DNA of 64,000 nt from a phage, in the sequence record PZ347775.1, one strand, 5' to 3'. Each line of letters starts with the position of its first letter. Position 1 is the first letter of the stretch. Positions 23,437 through 43,152 of the stretch are shown here, one piece after another. The translations under genes and the position numbers were made by a program. The notes beneath the pieces were generated by a model. The model had not been told where the DNA came from and searched no databases. It worked only from the letters and a program-made list of their open reading frames with translations.

Positions 23437-24156
23437 TTAGGATTCTTCTAAATGTCTTTTCTGAAAAGTTGATACCATACTACGATACGGTTCATTTGGA
23501 TACCCGTGTTTTATAGCTTCCTTTGTAAATTTTCTCCATCCATATTTAGTTTCTTTCCAAAGCTCGAATAATTCATCTTCATATTGCCATATAGTTAAAT
23601 GAGAACGCTTTGCAGCTTTAATTCCATTAATATGCTTTTCTTTTACTACAGGATTACTTAGTTTCTTTTTAATAATATTACTAACTTTTCTAACAAAAAC
23701 TGGGTCCTTATATCGTTGCGAAGTTTTTATTGAAGTGTTTAATTTAGCTTCCGGTGTGGATGTGACCTCTTTCATCTTTTTCTTCATATGCTGTATATGA
23801 TTAGGATTTTTCCATAAATTTATAGAATGCTTTTTGCATTTTATCCTAGTTTCATCTGCAACCTTTCCTCCTTCACCTCCGTATGACAGGTTAACACAGT
23901 TTTTTCCATATTTCAATTTACCTGCCATGATATATAATATTTCAGCTTGTACCATTTTATCATAATTATCAAAAACTTCTAAAACCGTTTTTGTTAATAT
24001 GTGGTCATTTGACACTTTTACACGTTCTATATAATTTCCACTACCAACATACGAATCATTGATGTTATTAGTTATATGTCGACCATAATAGTATTTCTTA
24101 ATACCTGTCTTTAAATTTAATATTTCAGTTTTATAGATAGTAAAATATTTTTTCAT
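23437..24156 (-). CDS. putative free-standing homing endonuclease, GIY-YIG/Seg-like (occupies the T4 mobD position)
   Basis: N-terminal TIYKTEILNLKTGIKKYYYGRH...SYVGSG resembles a divergent GIY-x10-YIG module; Lys-rich C-terminal half resembles the DNA-binding repeats of Seg/I-TevI-type enzymes. Confidence 0.45.
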   Translation of the reverse strand: MKKYFTIYKTEILNLKTGIKKYYYGRHITNNINDSYVGSGNYIERVKVSNDHILTKTVLEVFDNYDKMVQAEILYIMAGKLKYGKNCVNLSYGGEGGKVADETRIKCKKHSINLWKNPNHIQHMKKKMKEVTSTPEAKLNTSIKTSQRYKDPVFVRKVSNIIKKKLSNPVVKEKHINGIKAAKRSHLTIWQYEDELFELWKETKYGWRKFTKEAIKHGYPNEPYRSMVSTFQKRHLEES

Positions 24157-25133
24157 TTTAATAATACCGTTTCAGCAATTTCTTCCCAACCGTTTTTGTC
24201 GGTCATAATAAAGTCAGCAAGATAAAGAGCAGTACGCAGTGAAACATTGCGTAAACGATTAACATTAACTTTCATCCATGATAATGCTTTATAAGTTTCT
24301 TCATCAGAAAGACCGCGCTTTTGCATCATGTCAGTTGAAAGAATAACATCTTCAACCCTGACCATAATTTCTTCATTAGTGTGAACACCCAAATCCAAAT
24401 AAACTGAGCGGGACACCAATGCTTGTAAGTGTGGAGCAAGTTTAGTACCACGGTCTAATTCGCGGTCAATGTCAACGTTTGTGATAAAAACAATCGTTCC
24501 TTTAAATTCAAACTCACGGTCAATGCCTTTTTCTTCTAAGTAAGAAGATGCAGTGCTCCAGCAGACTTTACGGGTCTCTCCAGTGTCCAGAGCAGCTTTT
24601 AGAAGATTAAGAATGTCCATATCAGAGAAAACATCCACATCATCAATCAAAAGGACAGAATTCTCTTCACGATTATTCCAAAGCTGTTCATAAAGACCAA
24701 TACCAGAGATTTTACCATTAATGCTTTTATATTCAATGTATCCATTATCATTTGCTTTATTTAAAGCTTTATCTAAAGAATACGTTTTACCAATACCTGC
24801 TGCGCCAGAGATAATTAATGAACGAATATTTCCATTAATAATACCATTCGTCATCATTCCCATAACATTAAATCTTTTATTAATGCGGGTTTTCATATCT
24901 TCATATGATTCTTTAACTTCTTCAACTTTTACACCATCATATGAAATATCTGATTTGTAAACCCAAACACCGCGACGTTTACCGTCAATTTCAACAAAAA
25001 CTTTACCATCTCCTTGTGCATCTACCGGAGCATTATCTGGGAACCATTCGCCTAAGAGCTCAAAAGTTCCAGAGATTTCTTTACCGAAGTAGATACCCTT
25101 ATTGATAGTTACAGTTTTCATTTTATTCTCCAA
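24153..25133 (-). CDS. P-loop ATPase, AAA+-like
   Basis: Walker A ISGAAGIGKT, Walker B VLLIDDVD, candidate sensor-1 IVFITNVD. Confidence 0.6.
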   Translation of the reverse strand: MENKMKTVTINKGIYFGKEISGTFELLGEWFPDNAPVDAQGDGKVFVEIDGKRRGVWVYKSDISYDGVKVEEVKESYEDMKTRINKRFNVMGMMTNGIINGNIRSLIISGAAGIGKTYSLDKALNKANDNGYIEYKSINGKISGIGLYEQLWNNREENSVLLIDDVDVFSDMDILNLLKAALDTGETRKVCWSTASSYLEEKGIDREFEFKGTIVFITNVDIDRELDRGTKLAPHLQALVSRSVYLDLGVHTNEEIMVRVEDVILSTDMMQKRGLSDEETYKALSWMKVNVNRLRNVSLRTALYLADFIMTDKNGWEEIAETVLLK

Positions 25134-25182: not shown

Positions 25183-25668
25183 TTATTCCATTTCTACTAT
25201 ATGCATGTTCTTTTTGCTATCAAAATATATGTTTTTAACTATTAACTCAGAATTAATTGGCAGTAAAAACTCTCTTTCATAATCTACCATACAAAGATTA
25301 TCATAAAGCTTGTTAAGCTTATCATCGTCAGTTTGGCCAGATTCTTCAATTGCGATTAAATTTTCTAAAATGTCAATCATAGCAGTCGAATAGTCAAAAA
25401 CGTTTGCATTTTTTAACACTACTAAAACATTAGTCATATAGCGTTCTGCCGCAAACGTTTCAGCTATATGAGACTCACTGCTAAAGGAAGTTATTCTTTT
25501 AAATTTGATTCTCCTATTAACTTCAAACTTATAAGATAACACTTCCTCTATTGTAAGTCCTCTAAAAAGTGTGTCTTTAATCTCAAGTTTGTCTTTAATG
25601 TAATCATTAACACGCTTATGATTAAAATCATTAATTTTGTTGCCAAGGCATTGCATTAAAATATGCAT
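25183..25668 (-). CDS. hypothetical protein
   Basis: 161 aa ORF. Confidence 0.45.
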   Translation of the reverse strand: MHILMQCLGNKINDFNHKRVNDYIKDKLEIKDTLFRGLTIEEVLSYKFEVNRRIKFKRITSFSSESHIAETFAAERYMTNVLVVLKNANVFDYSTAMIDILENLIAIEESGQTDDDKLNKLYDNLCMVDYEREFLLPINSELIVKNIYFDSKKNMHIVEME

Positions 25669-25773
25669 TGTATTCTCCTCAATTTTTAAAGAGCAATTAA
25701 TTAACTACACATATATTATAATATGCTTTGCGATAGAAGTAAACAACTTTGTGACGTCATTTTAAACAAAAAA

Positions 25774-25791
25774 GGGAGCCCGAAGGCTCCC
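25774..25791 (-). terminator. intrinsic terminator after nucleotidyltransferase gene
   Basis: GGGAGCC-UUCG-GGCUCCC followed by UUUUUUG on minus-strand RNA. Confidence 0.6.
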
Positions 25792-25793
25792 TA

Positions 25794-26807
25794 TCATTTA
25801 TAATAACTTCGGTGGTTTTCAAGATAAACCCTCTCAAGGAAGTCATCCCAGAAACCCATGTCTACTTTTTGCTGCATACCGTTCTTAGAAGCTTCAATGG
25901 ATGCTGCTTCTACTTGATCGACCACATCTTCCAAAAACTCTTGAACAGTTTTAAATGGATGCTTACCCAACTTCACGTCGAGAATAAACGGAGCATCTTG
26001 GAGTGGATAAACCAAGTCACCAGTTTTGTAAATTTCCAATAGTTGGAGTCCACCACGACAAGCATGGCTCAAAGCTTTCCAGTCAATGCCCTCATTCGCT
26101 TCAGCTTTACGAGCGCGTTCACCGTATTCGGCATCAAGTTTATTCAAAGACTGCTTAAGCTCAATAAGAGAAAGTGTTGTCTGATATTTACGACCCAACA
26201 CGGTATAGAACGTTTGAGGGCCTGTTTTCTCATGATTATGGAATACCCATTCGCAGAATTCGTTCTCTGGAAGACGATGCTTAATATCTTCAACTTTAGT
26301 GCGACGTTGCTTAATAGAACCATCTTCTTGGTAATCAACCCACTGGTCAGGGATTTGATTAACTACTTTCAATACATCACGTAATGCGGCCAAACGAGAA
26401 CCCTTAACACCATATTTAGAAGCTTGCTTGCGAACATATCCTAAATAGGATTTCATGTTAGTTGTATAAAACCGTGAACGATTGTCTTGAATAAACTTCC
26501 ATACATCAGGCAAATCAGATTTAACTACCAGTTCAGGTGGAGTGTGGAGCATATCCAATGCTACGGTTTCACCATCTGCTGCTAATTTAAAGAAATACTT
26601 AAGACTGTATAGTTCATGGTCAATATCATTTTTAGTGTTTTTAGATGATGTGTTGTTAGTGTTTTTACTCATATGCTCTTTAACATTTCCGATAAGAATA
26701 TCGCGAGCAGGAGGAACAAAGATTTCTTTAAAATCTACATCAGATTCTGGTGTAGAAGTTCCATAAAGATGACTACCAAAATAGCTTTTCATTACTGTTT
26801 TCATCAT
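25794..26807 (-). CDS. putative nucleotidyltransferase (Pol-beta superfamily fold)
   Basis: N-terminal YFGSHLYGTSTPESDVDF (GS-x9-DxD) plus downstream TVALDML third acidic residue; ~200 aa helical C-terminal region. Confidence 0.55.
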   Translation of the reverse strand: MMKTVMKSYFGSHLYGTSTPESDVDFKEIFVPPARDILIGNVKEHMSKNTNNTSSKNTKNDIDHELYSLKYFFKLAADGETVALDMLHTPPELVVKSDLPDVWKFIQDNRSRFYTTNMKSYLGYVRKQASKYGVKGSRLAALRDVLKVVNQIPDQWVDYQEDGSIKQRRTKVEDIKHRLPENEFCEWVFHNHEKTGPQTFYTVLGRKYQTTLSLIELKQSLNKLDAEYGERARKAEANEGIDWKALSHACRGGLQLLEIYKTGDLVYPLQDAPFILDVKLGKHPFKTVQEFLEDVVDQVEAASIEASKNGMQQKVDMGFWDDFLERVYLENHRSYYK

Positions 26808-27265
26808 TCAGCCTTATATTCAATAACAGGACATACTTTAGCTTTACGCGCTTTTAAAAATTCGACGATAATAGATTTCTTTGGTTGAATAGGAGGTAAA
26901 CCTTTATACGCCCTATCAATATTTTCTACATGTAAAGCATAATCCTTTTTCCATTTATAATCTTTATATTTTTCATGCAGTTGTGCAGGAATAACAAATG
27001 AACCGATAATAAGTAAAACAAGCAAAATGGCAAGTATAAATGCCGATGGAATAAGAGTCCATAAACTACCAAAAATAAGCCATTTCTGCATGATTTCTGC
27101 GCAGATGATAGTTAGACCTGCGAGTATAGTACATCCGAAAAAAGAAACAAAAAATGTAGGAATAACAATAGACCAAAAGTATGCACACAGTGTCTTAGGT
27201 CGTTTCCATTCATCATTAAACATTTTGAATAATTTATAGTGCCAAGAGCTTTCATTAATAATCAT
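26804..27265 (-). CDS. membrane protein
   Basis: 153 aa with three or more hydrophobic helices. Confidence 0.5.
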   Translation of the reverse strand: MIINESSWHYKLFKMFNDEWKRPKTLCAYFWSIVIPTFFVSFFGCTILAGLTIICAEIMQKWLIFGSLWTLIPSAFILAILLVLLIIGSFVIPAQLHEKYKDYKWKKDYALHVENIDRAYKGLPPIQPKKSIIVEFLKARKAKVCPVIEYKAE

Positions 27266-27267
27266 AA

Positions 27268-27789
27268 TTATCCTTTCATTGAAGGTGTAACGGTTGTTAA
27301 ATACTTAATCATGGCTTCAGCTTCTGATTTTGATAATGAAATTTCTCCATTGTTTTGACGAATAGAAATAAAATCCGGATGACGGTCACCACCAGCTTTT
27401 AAAACACACATATAAGTATCAGTTTCATCTTCAATATTTGAAATGATTGAAGCAGTTCCGCATGAATGTGGTTTTTGATAAATCAATACAGCTTTTCTTC
27501 CACCGTTTGACTGTTCATAAACTTTTAACACATCAAACAAATCGCTTCTTTTATCAATAGCTAAGATGTTGTTTTCATCTTCAATGTTAAATCCTTCGGA
27601 TACTTCATAAAGTGTCACCCATAAATCGCCAATATCGATAGTAGTATTTTCCTTTCCATGACTTTCAAGAGCGTGACAAATTTTCTTAATTTCGTCATAA
27701 CTCATTTTAACAATATCATCTCCTTGAATAAGGAAGATGTCATTTTTAAATTCAACACGAATTAAACCGCTTTCACTTGAAATAAACAT
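27268..27789 (-). CDS. hypothetical protein, paralog family B member 1
   Basis: 173 aa; GFNIEDE motif and C-terminal SLSKSEAEAMIKYLTTVTPSM shared with next gene. Confidence 0.55.
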   Translation of the reverse strand: MFISSESGLIRVEFKNDIFLIQGDDIVKMSYDEIKKICHALESHGKENTTIDIGDLWVTLYEVSEGFNIEDENNILAIDKRSDLFDVLKVYEQSNGGRKAVLIYQKPHSCGTASIISNIEDETDTYMCVLKAGGDRHPDFISIRQNNGEISLSKSEAEAMIKYLTTVTPSMKG

Positions 27790-27795
27790 ATTTCC

Positions 27796-28362
27796 TCACT
27801 TTGAAATCATAGTTGGAATGACAGAATCAAGATAAGTCTTTAGCGCAATAGCTTCATCTTTGGTAAATGTGACAATATGCGCTCGAAAATCATCAATTTG
27901 ACGAATAGTTAAGACATCTCCTTCTTCATAACATTTTGATACATTTAAAACAGTTTCATCATTCTGATCGCACTGATCGCAAGCGTTAGTAATAATAGCA
28001 TTGCAATTTTTAAGCCATTTTAAACTATGTTTTCTTTCATTAGAATAATAAAAATATTTAATGTAAGTTATAAAATTATCCCAATTATTAATTGATAAGC
28101 ATATTGACTCGCTTTCAATATTAAATCCTGGGCATAAAGAATAAAAATGAATTTTATGCTCATCATTAATGCTTACAATTTTATCGGTGTAAGGTTTTTC
28201 AATTTGGGTTAAATGAATAATTTCGCTAGGCGTAAAATATAGCATATCGTCTTCTTGCGTCAAACGATACATATTATTTACTTTTTCTATAGCCAATTCA
28301 CCAAAAAGTGAACTAACTTCTAGTACTAATCGTTTCATATTGATTCTCTTCGACTCACTCAC
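27796..28362 (-). CDS. hypothetical protein, paralog family B member 2
   Basis: 188 aa; GFNIESE and C-terminal TFTKDEAIALKTYLDSVIPTM. Confidence 0.55.
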   Translation of the reverse strand: MSESKRINMKRLVLEVSSLFGELAIEKVNNMYRLTQEDDMLYFTPSEIIHLTQIEKPYTDKIVSINDEHKIHFYSLCPGFNIESESICLSINNWDNFITYIKYFYYSNERKHSLKWLKNCNAIITNACDQCDQNDETVLNVSKCYEEGDVLTIRQIDDFRAHIVTFTKDEAIALKTYLDSVIPTMISK

Positions 28363-28692
28363 AATTACATACTCCTTTGAATAATATCAATAATATTGTT
28401 CACCAGATTATAAGTAAACATCGGGTGATTATATTGAATCATCACATACACAACAAACAAAACTTTCATTCTCTTCTCCTTGGCAGTTGACAAGATTACT
28501 ATACCATAACCTTGCCAACTTGTAAACTGTTAAATGACGTTTTCAATAAAATTCTGGAGTTTTGTGTGAGCATCAACCATGATTTTCATTTCTTCCTTTG
28601 CGAAAGCTATACCTCTTTCCCGAGAAGAACACTCATAGTCAGAAACTGCATTAGCATATTCTTCAATTAGCTTCATTAAAAACATCTGCTTT

Positions 28693-42130: not shown

Positions 42131-42206
42131 TGGTCGAGGCAGTAGGGATCGAACCTACGACCTAGGACTTAGAAGGTCCTTGCTCTTCCTTCTGAGCTAT
42201 GCCCCG
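42131..42206 (-). tRNA. tRNA-Arg (anticodon UCU)
   Basis: Hand-folded cloverleaf on minus strand: acceptor CGGGGCA/TGCCTCG, anticodon loop CTTCTAA, T-loop GGTTCGATCC, encoded CCA. Confidence 0.8.
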
Positions 42207-42210
42207 TAAT

Positions 42211-42286
42211 TGGGGTGACCGATGGGAGTCGAACCCATGACTACGAGAATCACAATCTCGAGTTCTACCAACTGAACTACGGCCAC
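42211..42286 (-). tRNA. tRNA-His (anticodon GUG), no encoded G-1
   Basis: Acceptor GTGGCCG/CGGTCAC, anticodon loop TTGTGAT, discriminator C, CCA; resembles E. coli tRNA-His. Confidence 0.7.
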
Positions 42287-42400
42287 ATTAATACCTACTC
42301 CAACAATCAAGATGTCTTCACACGAAATTAAGAGAAGAGTGATCAGTTCAACCCCGATAATCGCGTCAAGTAGATATTAATGTGACAGTTGTCACAAATT

Positions 42401-42475
42401 TGGCGGACGTGATAGGATTCGAACCTATAACCAATCGCTTAACAGGCGATCGCTCTGCCATTGAGCTACACATCC
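42401..42475 (-). tRNA. tRNA-Asn (anticodon GUU)
   Basis: Acceptor GGATGTG/CACGTCC, anticodon loop CTGTTAA, T-loop GGTTCGAATCC, CCA. Confidence 0.75.
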
Positions 42476-42479
42476 AAAT

Positions 42480-42566
42480 TGGTGGGGAGTGATGGAGTCG
42501 AACCACCCGAGTCGCAATGACAATGGATTTACAGTCCACACCGCTACCTCTACGGGATAACTCCCC
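42480..42566 (-). tRNA. tRNA-Tyr (anticodon GUA), class II with long variable arm
   Basis: Acceptor GGGGAGT/ACTCCCC, anticodon loop CTGTAAA, long variable arm TGTCATTGCGACTCG, CCA. Confidence 0.75.
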
Positions 42567-42579
42567 TTAATTCTTAATT

Positions 42580-42654
42580 TGGTGGCCCTGGGTGGAATTG
42601 AACCACCATCTGGCGATTATGAGTCGCTTGCTTGAACCTTCCAGCTACAGGGCC
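42580..42654 (-). tRNA. tRNA with anticodon CAU (Met, or Ile if C34 is modified as reported for T4 tRNA-Ile)
   Basis: Acceptor GGCCCTG/CAGGGCC, anticodon loop CTCATAA, T-loop GGTTCAATTCC, CCA. Confidence 0.7.
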
Positions 42655-42655
42655 T

Positions 42656-42732
42656 TGGTGCTGATTGACGGAATCGAACCGCCGACCTTCTCATTACAAG
42701 TGAGTTGCTCTACCTACTGAGCTAAATCAGCA
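42656..42732 (-). tRNA. tRNA-Thr (anticodon UGU)
   Basis: Acceptor TGCTGAT/ATCAGCA, anticodon loop CTTGTAA, T-loop GGTTCGATTCC, CCA. Confidence 0.8.
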
Positions 42733-42736
42733 AAAC

Positions 42737-42826
42737 TGGCGGAGGCGATAGGATTTGAACCTATGAGTCGCCGGAGCGACTGCCGGTTTTCAAGACCGGT
42801 GCATTAAACCACTCTGCCACGCCTCC
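42737..42826 (-). tRNA. tRNA-Ser (anticodon UGA), class II
   Basis: Acceptor GGAGGCG/CGCCTCC, anticodon stem CCGGT/ACCGG with loop CTTGAAA, long variable arm, CCA. Confidence 0.8.
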
Positions 42827-42828
42827 AG

Positions 42829-42902
42829 TCTCCATACAAGGATTTGAACCTTGGACCTCCTGATCCCAAATCAGGCGCTCTACCAAACTGAGCTACACGG
42901 AG
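42829..42902 (-). tRNA. tRNA-Pro (anticodon UGG), CCA not encoded
   Basis: Acceptor CTCCGTG/TATGGAG, anticodon loop TTTGGGA, T-loop GGTTCAAATCC; 3' end is A-CU not CCA. Confidence 0.75.
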
Positions 42903-42912
42903 TAAATTAAAT

Positions 42913-42986
<74 letters not shown>

Positions 42987-42991
42987 AAATT

Positions 42992-43078
42992 TGGTGCGAG
43001 AAGTGGGACTCGAACCCACAAGGAAATCATTCCGCAGCATTTTAAGTGCTGTGCCTTTACCAATTTGACCATTCTCGC
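42992..43078 (-). tRNA. tRNA-Leu (anticodon UAA), class II
   Basis: Acceptor GCGAGAA/TTCTCGC, anticodon stem CAGCA/TGCTG with loop CTTAAAA, long variable arm, CCA. Confidence 0.8.
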
Positions 43079-43079
43079 G

Positions 43080-43152
43080 CTGGGAATAAAGGACTCGAAC
43101 CTTTGCATCCTGGAATCAAAATCCAGTGCCTTACCAACTTGGCTAATTCCCA
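43080..43152 (-). tRNA. tRNA-Gln (anticodon UUG), CCA not encoded
   Basis: Acceptor TGGGAAT/ATTCCCA, anticodon loop TTTTGAT, T-loop GGTTCGAGTCC; first gene of the cluster. Confidence 0.8.

Follow-up and report, generated by a model that had tools for sequence, protein, structure and literature searches.

The gene at positions 25794-26807 on the minus strand of a 64,000-nucleotide stretch of phage sequence record PZ347775.1 (hereafter, the window) is, by sequence comparison, an ortholog of T4 nrdC.11 and a member of the RlaP family of DNA polymerase beta (Pol-beta)-type nucleotidyltransferases (NTases). Judged from its motifs and conservation, the protein is very probably an active RlaP-family NTase. 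The repair of transfer RNA (tRNA) by T4 Pnk and Rnl1 after cleavage by the nuclease PrrC is a textbook example of phage counter-defence. By analogy with characterised relatives, we lean towards the view that NrdC.11 replaces the nucleotides missing from tRNA breaks ahead of repair by Pnk and Rnl1, with RloC-type nucleases as one example of what it would counter. The RlaP identity of NrdC.11 was already known, and the finding is real, not new. It mainly confirms existing knowledge, since the hypothesis is already contained in Burroughs and Aravind (2016, as represented in citing papers), Iyer et al. (2021), and Carruthers et al. (2025). The pairing of long with short RlaP genes, described below, is a new observation.

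The window belongs to a Tequatrovirus; its DNA is 97.6% identical to that of Escherichia phage W143 and 96% identical to that of HY01. A preliminary description of this DNA had placed a 337-amino acid (aa) open reading frame (ORF) at 25794-26807, within the nrdC-tk block of a T4-type phage; the ORF list of the window (minus strand) and the gene order relative to T4 agree with both statements. The encoded protein is 98% identical to T4 NrdC.11 (NP_049709.1) over 336 aa and has the same length, and its gene occupies the corresponding position in the nrdC-tk block. The two genes differ by 57 synonymous and only 7 nonsynonymous codons, which argues for strong purifying selection on nrdC.11. The protein matched Pfam family PF10127, RlaP ("RNA repair pathway DNA polymerase beta family"), over residues 7-135 with 42 bits (gathering cutoff, 23; E = 1.1e-10), and so did all 42 diverse homologs tested. 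PHROG 388, "nucleotidyltransferase", matched over the full length (2e-136). The description of the gene as one without an assigned function in T4-type phages is out of date: the RefSeq name of T4 NrdC.11 is "nucleotidyltransferase" ("uncharacterized 38.9 kDa protein" in older records), the protein belongs to the RlaP family, and it is named in a 2025 preprint.

Homologs of nrdC.11 were found by tblastn in 1,563 of 50,697 phage records, chiefly T4-like phages that infect enterobacteria, Acinetobacter, Aeromonas, and Vibrio. The protein identity to T4, the codon differences, and this distribution put the ORF well beyond chance. When 1.84 billion cluster representatives were searched exhaustively, 3,398 clusters matched at E<=1e-3, of which 822 also reached E<=1e-30; the 150 cluster matches listed are mostly full-length proteins of approximately 300-360 aa. 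The scan of genome contigs gave one match, in a Bacilli metagenome-assembled genome (MAG) contig that is phage-like and carries a thymidine kinase gene upstream; RNA-repair genes were not recognised near the homolog on this contig. In database records, nrdC.11 orthologs are often misnamed "thioredoxin", from the gene name nrdC, or "putative HNH homing endonuclease", and neighbouring genes carry the misannotation [quoted passage not shown]. The GenBank misnaming of the orthologs ("thioredoxin", "HNH endonuclease") can now be corrected.

PF10127 was named RlaP because some of its members lie in operons with RNA ligases, and a role in replacing the nucleotides missing from damaged RNA ahead of ligation was predicted for the family (Burroughs and Aravind, 2016, as represented in citing papers; Iyer et al., 2021, PMC7824862). 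In jumbo phages, the distribution of RlaP mirrors that of RNA ligases (Iyer et al., 2021). Two Pseudomonas RlaPs, PfRlaP and PaRlaP, were characterised in a preprint of December 2025 (Carruthers et al., 2025, 10.64898/2025.12.29.696909). Both add one or two nucleoside monophosphates (NMPs) to the 3'-OH of RNA, use any nucleoside triphosphate (NTP) and also dATP, and prefer Mn2+. They leave DNA and protein unlabelled, as seen with E. coli proteins for PfRlaP. In a nicked-tRNA mimic they prefer the 5' half, and they partially rescue the aminoacylation of a tRNA lacking one anticodon-loop nucleotide. The RlaP crystal structure consists of an NTase domain and a helical domain, with a basic cleft and three strictly conserved aspartates. 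For RlaPs in RtcB operons, the preprint points to an unresolved mismatch. T4 NrdC.11 appears in it as an RlaP of unknown function, in cluster 5 of the PF10127 network, whereas the studied enzymes belong to cluster 1a (Carruthers et al., 2025).

The catalytic residues of the family are present in the window protein. The preliminary description had reported a GS-DxD signature, and residues 9-26 (YFGSHLYGTSTPESDVDF; 26730..26783, minus strand) do carry it: the nucleotide-binding turn G11-S12, ten residues, and the metal-binding D23-x-D25 form the minimal Pol-beta NTase signature, as seen in the translation, in residue invariance, and in the alignment to RlaP. Across 42 diverse, aligned homologs (34-54% identity), G11, S12, G16, S22, D23, D25, N57, D63, Y124, Y132, R231, K244, H248, R251, P268, and K279 are invariant. 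D85 is conserved (D/E) in at least 90% of these homologs. D63 is invariant in two homolog alignments. Among 25 canonical short RlaPs, the invariant G37-S38, D49, D51, D88, and E110 align to G11-S12, D23, D25, D63, and D85, respectively. Hence, the three conserved RlaP aspartates most plausibly correspond to D23, D25, and D63.

An AlphaFold2 model built from the homolog alignment (mean predicted local distance difference test score [pLDDT], 93.7; predicted template modelling score [pTM], 0.81) agrees with this assignment. In the model, strand 3-10 leads into the GS turn, strand 24-31 starts from the DxD motif, and strands 45-49 and 62-68 follow, the latter bearing D63; helices 69-77 and 81-87 come next, and the helical domain comprises residues 119-150 and 214-336. 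A third catalytic acid had been proposed in the segment TVALDML, taken for a hydrophobic strand. This segment is residues 81-87, and its acid, D85, lies in a helix of the model; the strand-borne acid is D63. Alignment and model together make D63 (codon, 26619..26621, minus strand), not D85, the probable third catalytic carboxylate. D85 (codon, 26553..26555, minus strand), which aligns to E110, is probably a fourth conserved acid with an auxiliary role in the active site.

The C-terminal domain of approximately 200 aa is helical, as had been described, and in addition contains an insert of five strands (about residues 155-209). The strands assigned by DSSP are 155-159, 165-169, 185-192, 196-203, and 206-209. 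The insert region as a whole (residues 150-213; 26169..26360, minus strand) is variable, gappy, and poorly conserved in the 42-homolog alignment, and is typical of the long-form subfamily discussed below. Residues 231-251 (RARKAEANEGIDWKALSHACR; 26055..26117, minus strand), in helices 214-236 and 243-262, bring together the invariant basic residues R231, K244, H248, and R251. By analogy with the basic cleft of PfRlaP, these residues may line the NTP/RNA cleft. Overall, the window protein shares with PfRlaP and PaRlaP the GS/DxD/D set and, according to the model, a layout of an NTase domain plus a helical C-terminal domain. It differs from them in its network cluster, in being approximately 65 aa longer with a beta insert, and in a C-terminal domain that profile comparison could not align to short RlaPs.

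Foldseek against the PDB gave nothing below E = 1e-3, only weak matches to the superfamily core. The closest solved folds included kanamycin nucleotidyltransferase (KNTase)/ANT enzymes, LinB, AadA, Hailong HalB, and the NTase-like protein 3c18. HalB, KNTase (ANT(4')), and 3c18 have the Pol-beta NTase core in common with the window protein, and KNTase and 3c18 also share its layout of NTase and helical domain. In a library of viral structures, the good matches were other phage and giant-virus "nucleotidyltransferases". Sequence searches of the PDB with the protein and with the 42-sequence profile found nothing meaningful, in a copy that evidently did not contain the PfRlaP crystal structure.

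Several other family assignments were tried and rejected. The preliminary description had named CD-NTases/cGAS-like enzymes, MenT/AbiEii toxins, CCA-adding enzymes, and OAS-like enzymes as kin by fold. The shared superfamily fold stands; no model of such a family matches. Membership in the CD-NTase/cGAS-like enzymes of CBASS was rejected for want of a match to any PADLOC CD-NTase model, and MenT/AbiEii membership for want of a Pfam, NCBIfam, or PADLOC match. An AbiEi-type antitoxin gene was not found beside nrdC.11, whose neighbours encode a membrane protein and a Mod-like ADP-ribosyltransferase. A CCA-adding enzyme or poly(A) polymerase was rejected because Pfam PolyA_pol gave no match at E up to 1, and none is among the top fold matches listed. 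The antitoxin MntA was rejected as well: NCBIfam NF047752 scored 13.3 bits against a cutoff of 60 and covered only residues 9-26, and the NCBIfam scan gave nothing else. The C-terminal bundle was also considered as a HEPN-like RNase; by eye, no Rx4-6H motif occurs among the invariant R231, K244, H248, and R251, and this reading was rejected.

Comparison with bacterial proteins separates two forms of RlaP. NrdC.11 is 34-35% identical to bacterial proteins of 327-341 aa over the full length, insert included. The best bacterial plasmid match, WP_338736464.1 of Asticcacaulis plasmid pASDW145_1, is 35.5% identical over its full length; in this Asticcacaulis long form, the one that was scanned, the Pfam match is confined to the N-terminal part, like that of the window protein. 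The similarity of the long forms to the canonical short RlaPs of 261-271 aa is barely detectable. A 338-aa Deferribacter protein bridges the two forms, as it covers Pfam positions 2-246 of 249 and matches NrdC.11 residues 3-302. By these sequence relationships, NrdC.11 is a member of a distinct "long" RlaP subfamily.

Long and short genes occur as pairs in bacteria. In all four bacterial loci with both forms (L086, 6001-7790; L090, 5006-6816; L092, 4976-6786; L093, 5006-6816), the short gene comes immediately after the long one, and the two overlap as ATGA or TGATG. The pair (WP_338736464.1 and WP_338736463.1) follows Hen1 and Pnkp in an Asticcacaulis plasmid operon, stands alone on the A. biprosthecium chromosome, follows RtcB on a metagenome contig, and lies between Hen1-Pnkp and an RNA ligase in a Chlamydiales MAG. 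The sample is small and biased, since three of the four loci were reached via homologs of a single short RlaP. A search with one short-RlaP sequence found the short form in 80 phage records, mainly phiKZ-like and other jumbo phages; neither Escherichia phages nor other T4-type phages were among the 80 records matched by this query. A second RlaP copy was found in none of 84 loci (83 phage-derived loci and the Bacilli MAG contig). In the four bacterial loci, then, the long gene is in translational coupling with that of a canonical short RlaP; in T4-type phages, the search found the long form only.

Of the four coupled pairs, three are embedded in Hen1-Pnkp or RtcB operons. This arrangement suggests that the two proteins form a heteromeric enzyme, or else that they act separately and differ in their specificity for ends or nucleotides. 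Together with the strongly diverged C-terminal domain and its beta insert, it prompts the tentative and rather doubtful proposal that long RlaPs are functionally distinct and not mere divergent copies of the short enzymes. If it holds, the activity in T4-type phages would differ from the untemplated addition of one or two nucleotides by PfRlaP. The enzyme could then restore the wobble position in a way that is specific to the tRNA or to the nucleotide, and T4 tRNA repair would be a three-enzyme pathway that defeats RloC. Given that NrdC.11 sits in an uncharacterised long subfamily, the Pseudomonas biochemistry is not simply transferable to the T4 protein; it is a reasonable but unproven guide to NrdC.11.

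Gene neighbourhoods connect the long subfamily with RNA repair. The phage sample comprised 32 diverse phage or MAG loci with full-length relatives of 39-54% identity (L003, L004, and L051-L084). RNA-repair genes lie within approximately 5 kb of the long RlaP gene in six of them. In L077, genes for RlaP, an RNA ligase (PF09414), and Pnkp (kinase and HAD_PNKP) stand in tandem with overlapping ends. L059 carries an Rnl1-type ligase gene, and a P-loop kinase gene is immediately upstream of RlaP. RNA ligase genes are near RlaP in L082 and L067, and RtcB genes in L068 and L074. Among the five bacterial loci examined, four have RNA-repair neighbours (RNA ligase, Pnkp, RtcB, or Hen1); the Deferribacter homolog has RtcB 2.5 kb upstream. 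The full-length relatives with such linkage are 34-45% identical. Since it is the full-length relatives that adjoin repair genes, an RNA-repair role is supported for the NrdC.11-type subfamily itself and not only for the family at large. HY01, a close relative of the window phage, encodes Rnl2, Pnk, and Rnl1 approximately 50-80 kb from nrdC.11. Other recurrent neighbours of long RlaP genes, among 127 neighbour proteins, were NAPRTase (5), NAMPT_N (4), and NUDIX (4), all of NAD+ salvage, and HD-domain proteins (5). A peptidyl-tRNA hydrolase gene (PTH2) was seen near long RlaP on one ENA contig, and the gene for an HD_4 protein overlaps the RlaP start in another locus (L097, 4471-5004).

The proposed mechanism for NrdC.11 runs as follows. 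The gene would be transcribed early, as the last of a short unit closed by a strong terminator. A host anticodon nuclease would cut the anticodon loop of a tRNA, with RloC also removing a nucleotide, and Pnk of the T4 type would turn the broken ends into 3'-OH and 5'-P. The N-terminal domain of NrdC.11 would bind two divalent metals and an NTP via G11-S12, D23, D25, and D63, with D85 as an auxiliary acid. The diverged helical C-terminal domain, with R231, K244, H248, R251, and the beta insert, would form the RNA-binding side of the cleft. NrdC.11 would then extend the 3'-OH of the broken RNA, likely the 5' half of the tRNA, by one or two untemplated nucleotides. Finally, Rnl1 or Rnl2, which like Pnk is encoded elsewhere in the genome, would seal the break to give a full-length tRNA. 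The correct base would be present in only a fraction of the repaired products, as argued for RlaP by Carruthers et al. (2025). The present analysis shows family membership, conserved catalytic residues, the fold, purifying selection, and the association of full-length relatives with RNA-repair genes; we infer the RNA substrate, the addition of one or two nucleotides, and the anti-RloC role for NrdC.11 by analogy. The order Pnk, RlaP, Rnl1 appears chemically coherent, because Pnk leaves the 3'-OH that RlaP needs and that Rnl1 uses.

RloC excises the wobble nucleotide, and T4 Pnk and Rnl1 then give mostly junctions without it (Klaiman et al., 2012, PMC3458546). Because the two enzymes acting alone on RloC products leave out this nucleotide, a nucleotide-restoring step is missing from the classical pathway. 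Wobble excision should defeat two-enzyme repair (Klaiman et al., 2012). In T4-type phages, this gap would be closed by an enzyme that puts the nucleotide back, and the gene is found in approximately 1,500 sequenced phages. The preliminary description had offered three candidate roles, namely a decoy or competing nucleotide-signal synthase, repair or modification of tRNA 3' ends, and an anti-defence factor. Of these, RNA-end repair is favoured, and is placed at the broken anticodon-loop end of a tRNA half; the CCA end is less favoured.

Several observations weigh against this role. The addition of one or two NMPs was shown only for PfRlaP and PaRlaP, which are distantly related and belong to another sequence cluster. 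The PF10127 match of the window protein is restricted to the N-terminal residues given above. Profile-profile alignment with short RlaPs (hhalign) covered approximately 90 N-terminal columns at 21-39% probability and left the C-terminal domain unaligned. With alignment limited to the N-terminus, the substrate-binding domain is strongly diverged and may bind something else. Genes for RNA ligases, Pnkp, Hen1, and RtcB are neighbours of relatives, whereas in the window, as in T4-type genomes, the gene is not linked to ligase genes: nrdC.11 is unlinked to pnk/rnl in both the window and T4, and no RNA-repair gene lies within the window. In the diverse phage sample, 26 of the 32 loci have no RNA-repair neighbour. 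The nrdC.11-mobD.3 segment of T4 can be lost in the laboratory (PMC9825161), so any role of nrdC.11 would be a conditional one.

Some of these observations suit a different RNA task. The enzyme could act on RNA 3' ends to mend CCA ends, or to tag host or phage transcripts with one or two nucleotides and thereby alter their stability. Its catalytic core and its RNA-directed family would be the same, the window contains 11 tRNA genes, the PTH2 and HD_4 genes next to some relatives have to do with translation, and PfRlaP labelled rRNA-sized and full-length tRNA species besides fragments (Carruthers et al., 2025). The lack of pnk/rnl linkage in T4-type genomes also speaks for it. We nevertheless regard this as unlikely: the linkage seen in relatives is specific to enzymes that repair internal breaks (ligases, Pnkp, Hen1, and RtcB), none of the CCA-adding family models matches, and PfRlaP prefers the 5' half of the nicked-tRNA mimic over the 3' half that bears the acceptor end (Carruthers et al., 2025). 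Nucleotidylylation of a protein or small molecule, either AMPylation of a host toxin or defence protein, as by MNT antitoxins acting on HEPN toxins, or a KNTase-type reaction, is less probable still. KNTase/ANT, LinB, and AadA do figure among the closest solved folds, and the MntA match falls on the GS...D motif; however, the fold matches concern the superfamily core only (Foldseek E > 1e-3), the MntA score of 13 bits is far from the cutoff of 60, PfRlaP left E. coli proteins unlabelled (Carruthers et al., 2025), and the gene linkage in relatives points to RNA repair.

The acceptance of dATP by PfRlaP (Carruthers et al., 2025) would fit an enzyme that makes a nucleotide signal or its mimic, such as oligo(deoxy)adenylates in the manner of Hailong HalB or a CD-NTase-like product, and so jams host defence. 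Such an activity is very improbable here: the HalB match is confined to the shared NTase core at 16% identity, no PADLOC defence-system model (CD-NTases included) matches, the RlaP family extends RNA ends rather than making free oligomers, and no signal-related neighbours were seen at the window locus or the phage loci. That the protein is a catalytically inactive or purely structural remnant would agree with the laboratory loss of the nrdC.11-mobD.3 segment from T4 (PMC9825161). The invariance of all catalytic residues across 42 diverse homologs, the strong purifying selection, and the presence of the gene in 1,563 phage records make this extremely improbable.

The ends of the gene and its transcription were examined in the window sequence. 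The first ATG gives 337 aa and forms an ATGA overlap with the stop codon of the 153-aa gene upstream. The second ATG, at 26804, gives 336 aa, is the start annotated in T4, and is better spaced from the AGG of the ribosome-binding site; this second ATG may be the likely start of nrdC.11. The gene ends with TGA, and a terminator hairpin starts directly past the stop codon. A strong terminator of its own had been claimed for the gene, and a terminator scan together with the sequence supports it. The intrinsic terminator (25773..25792, minus strand) has an 8-bp stem with 6 G-C pairs and a TTCG loop (GGGAGCC-TTCG-GGCTCCC), followed by a T-run (TTTTTTGTTT). The record of Yersinia phage fPS-2 has an annotated terminator at the corresponding position.

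Three co-directional genes lie upstream (26804..28362, minus strand), and their arrangement, with the ATGA overlap, suggests one transcription unit. According to the ORF list and the Pfam and PHROG matches, they are a y05I-like paralog (27796-28362), a second y05I-like paralog in tandem with it (PF24449/PF24448; 27268-27789), and the 153-aa membrane-protein gene (PHROG 944; 26804-27265), whose stop overlaps the nrdC.11 start. The nrdC.11 ortholog appears to be the last of the four genes of this unit. A sigma-70/T4-early-type promoter-like site found by promoter scan and consensus match, TTTACA-17-TATAGT with an extended TG (28498..28526, minus strand), is a candidate start of the four-gene unit. 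A search for a MotA-type middle promoter directly upstream of nrdC.11 gave a TGCTTTA box at approximately 26939, without a canonical -10 at the right spacing.

The surroundings of nrdC.11 differ from those in T4. The homing endonuclease gene mobD lies upstream of nrdC.11 in T4, whereas the window phage has the 153-aa membrane-protein gene there. The mobile-element content differs accordingly, as mobD is absent and the membrane-protein gene and the second y05I-like paralog are present instead (26804-27789). A 239-aa homing-endonuclease-like gene (PHROG 314; 23437-24156, minus strand) stands between the nrdC.9 and nrdC.10 orthologs. The window phage also differs from T4 in having an extra 161-aa Mod-like ADP-ribosyltransferase gene (PHROG 832; 25183-25668, minus strand) between the nrdC.11 and nrdC.10 orthologs. 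The 161-aa product is a shortened paralog of T4 ModA (28% identity) and ModB (30%), and keeps FRG, SFS, and ERE motifs that resemble the R-S-ExE signature. An early-type promoter-like site for this gene, TTTACT-17-TATAAT (25743-25715, minus strand), lies just past the nrdC.11 terminator.

Eleven tRNA genes, for Arg, His, Asn, Tyr, Met/Ile(CAT), Thr, Ser, Pro, Gly, Leu, and Gln, are found at 42131-43152 (minus strand) of the window; T4 has eight. Colicin-E5-type anticodon nucleases cut four tRNAs, three of which are those for His, Asn, and Tyr. If this correspondence holds, tRNA replacement may go together with tRNA repair in the window phage. The nrdC.10 ortholog (326 aa, PHROG 1250; 24153-25133, minus strand) shows weak, sub-threshold matches to STAND/AAA NTPases (nSTAND3, AAA_16, and AAA_22), with a P-loop at about residues 100-130.

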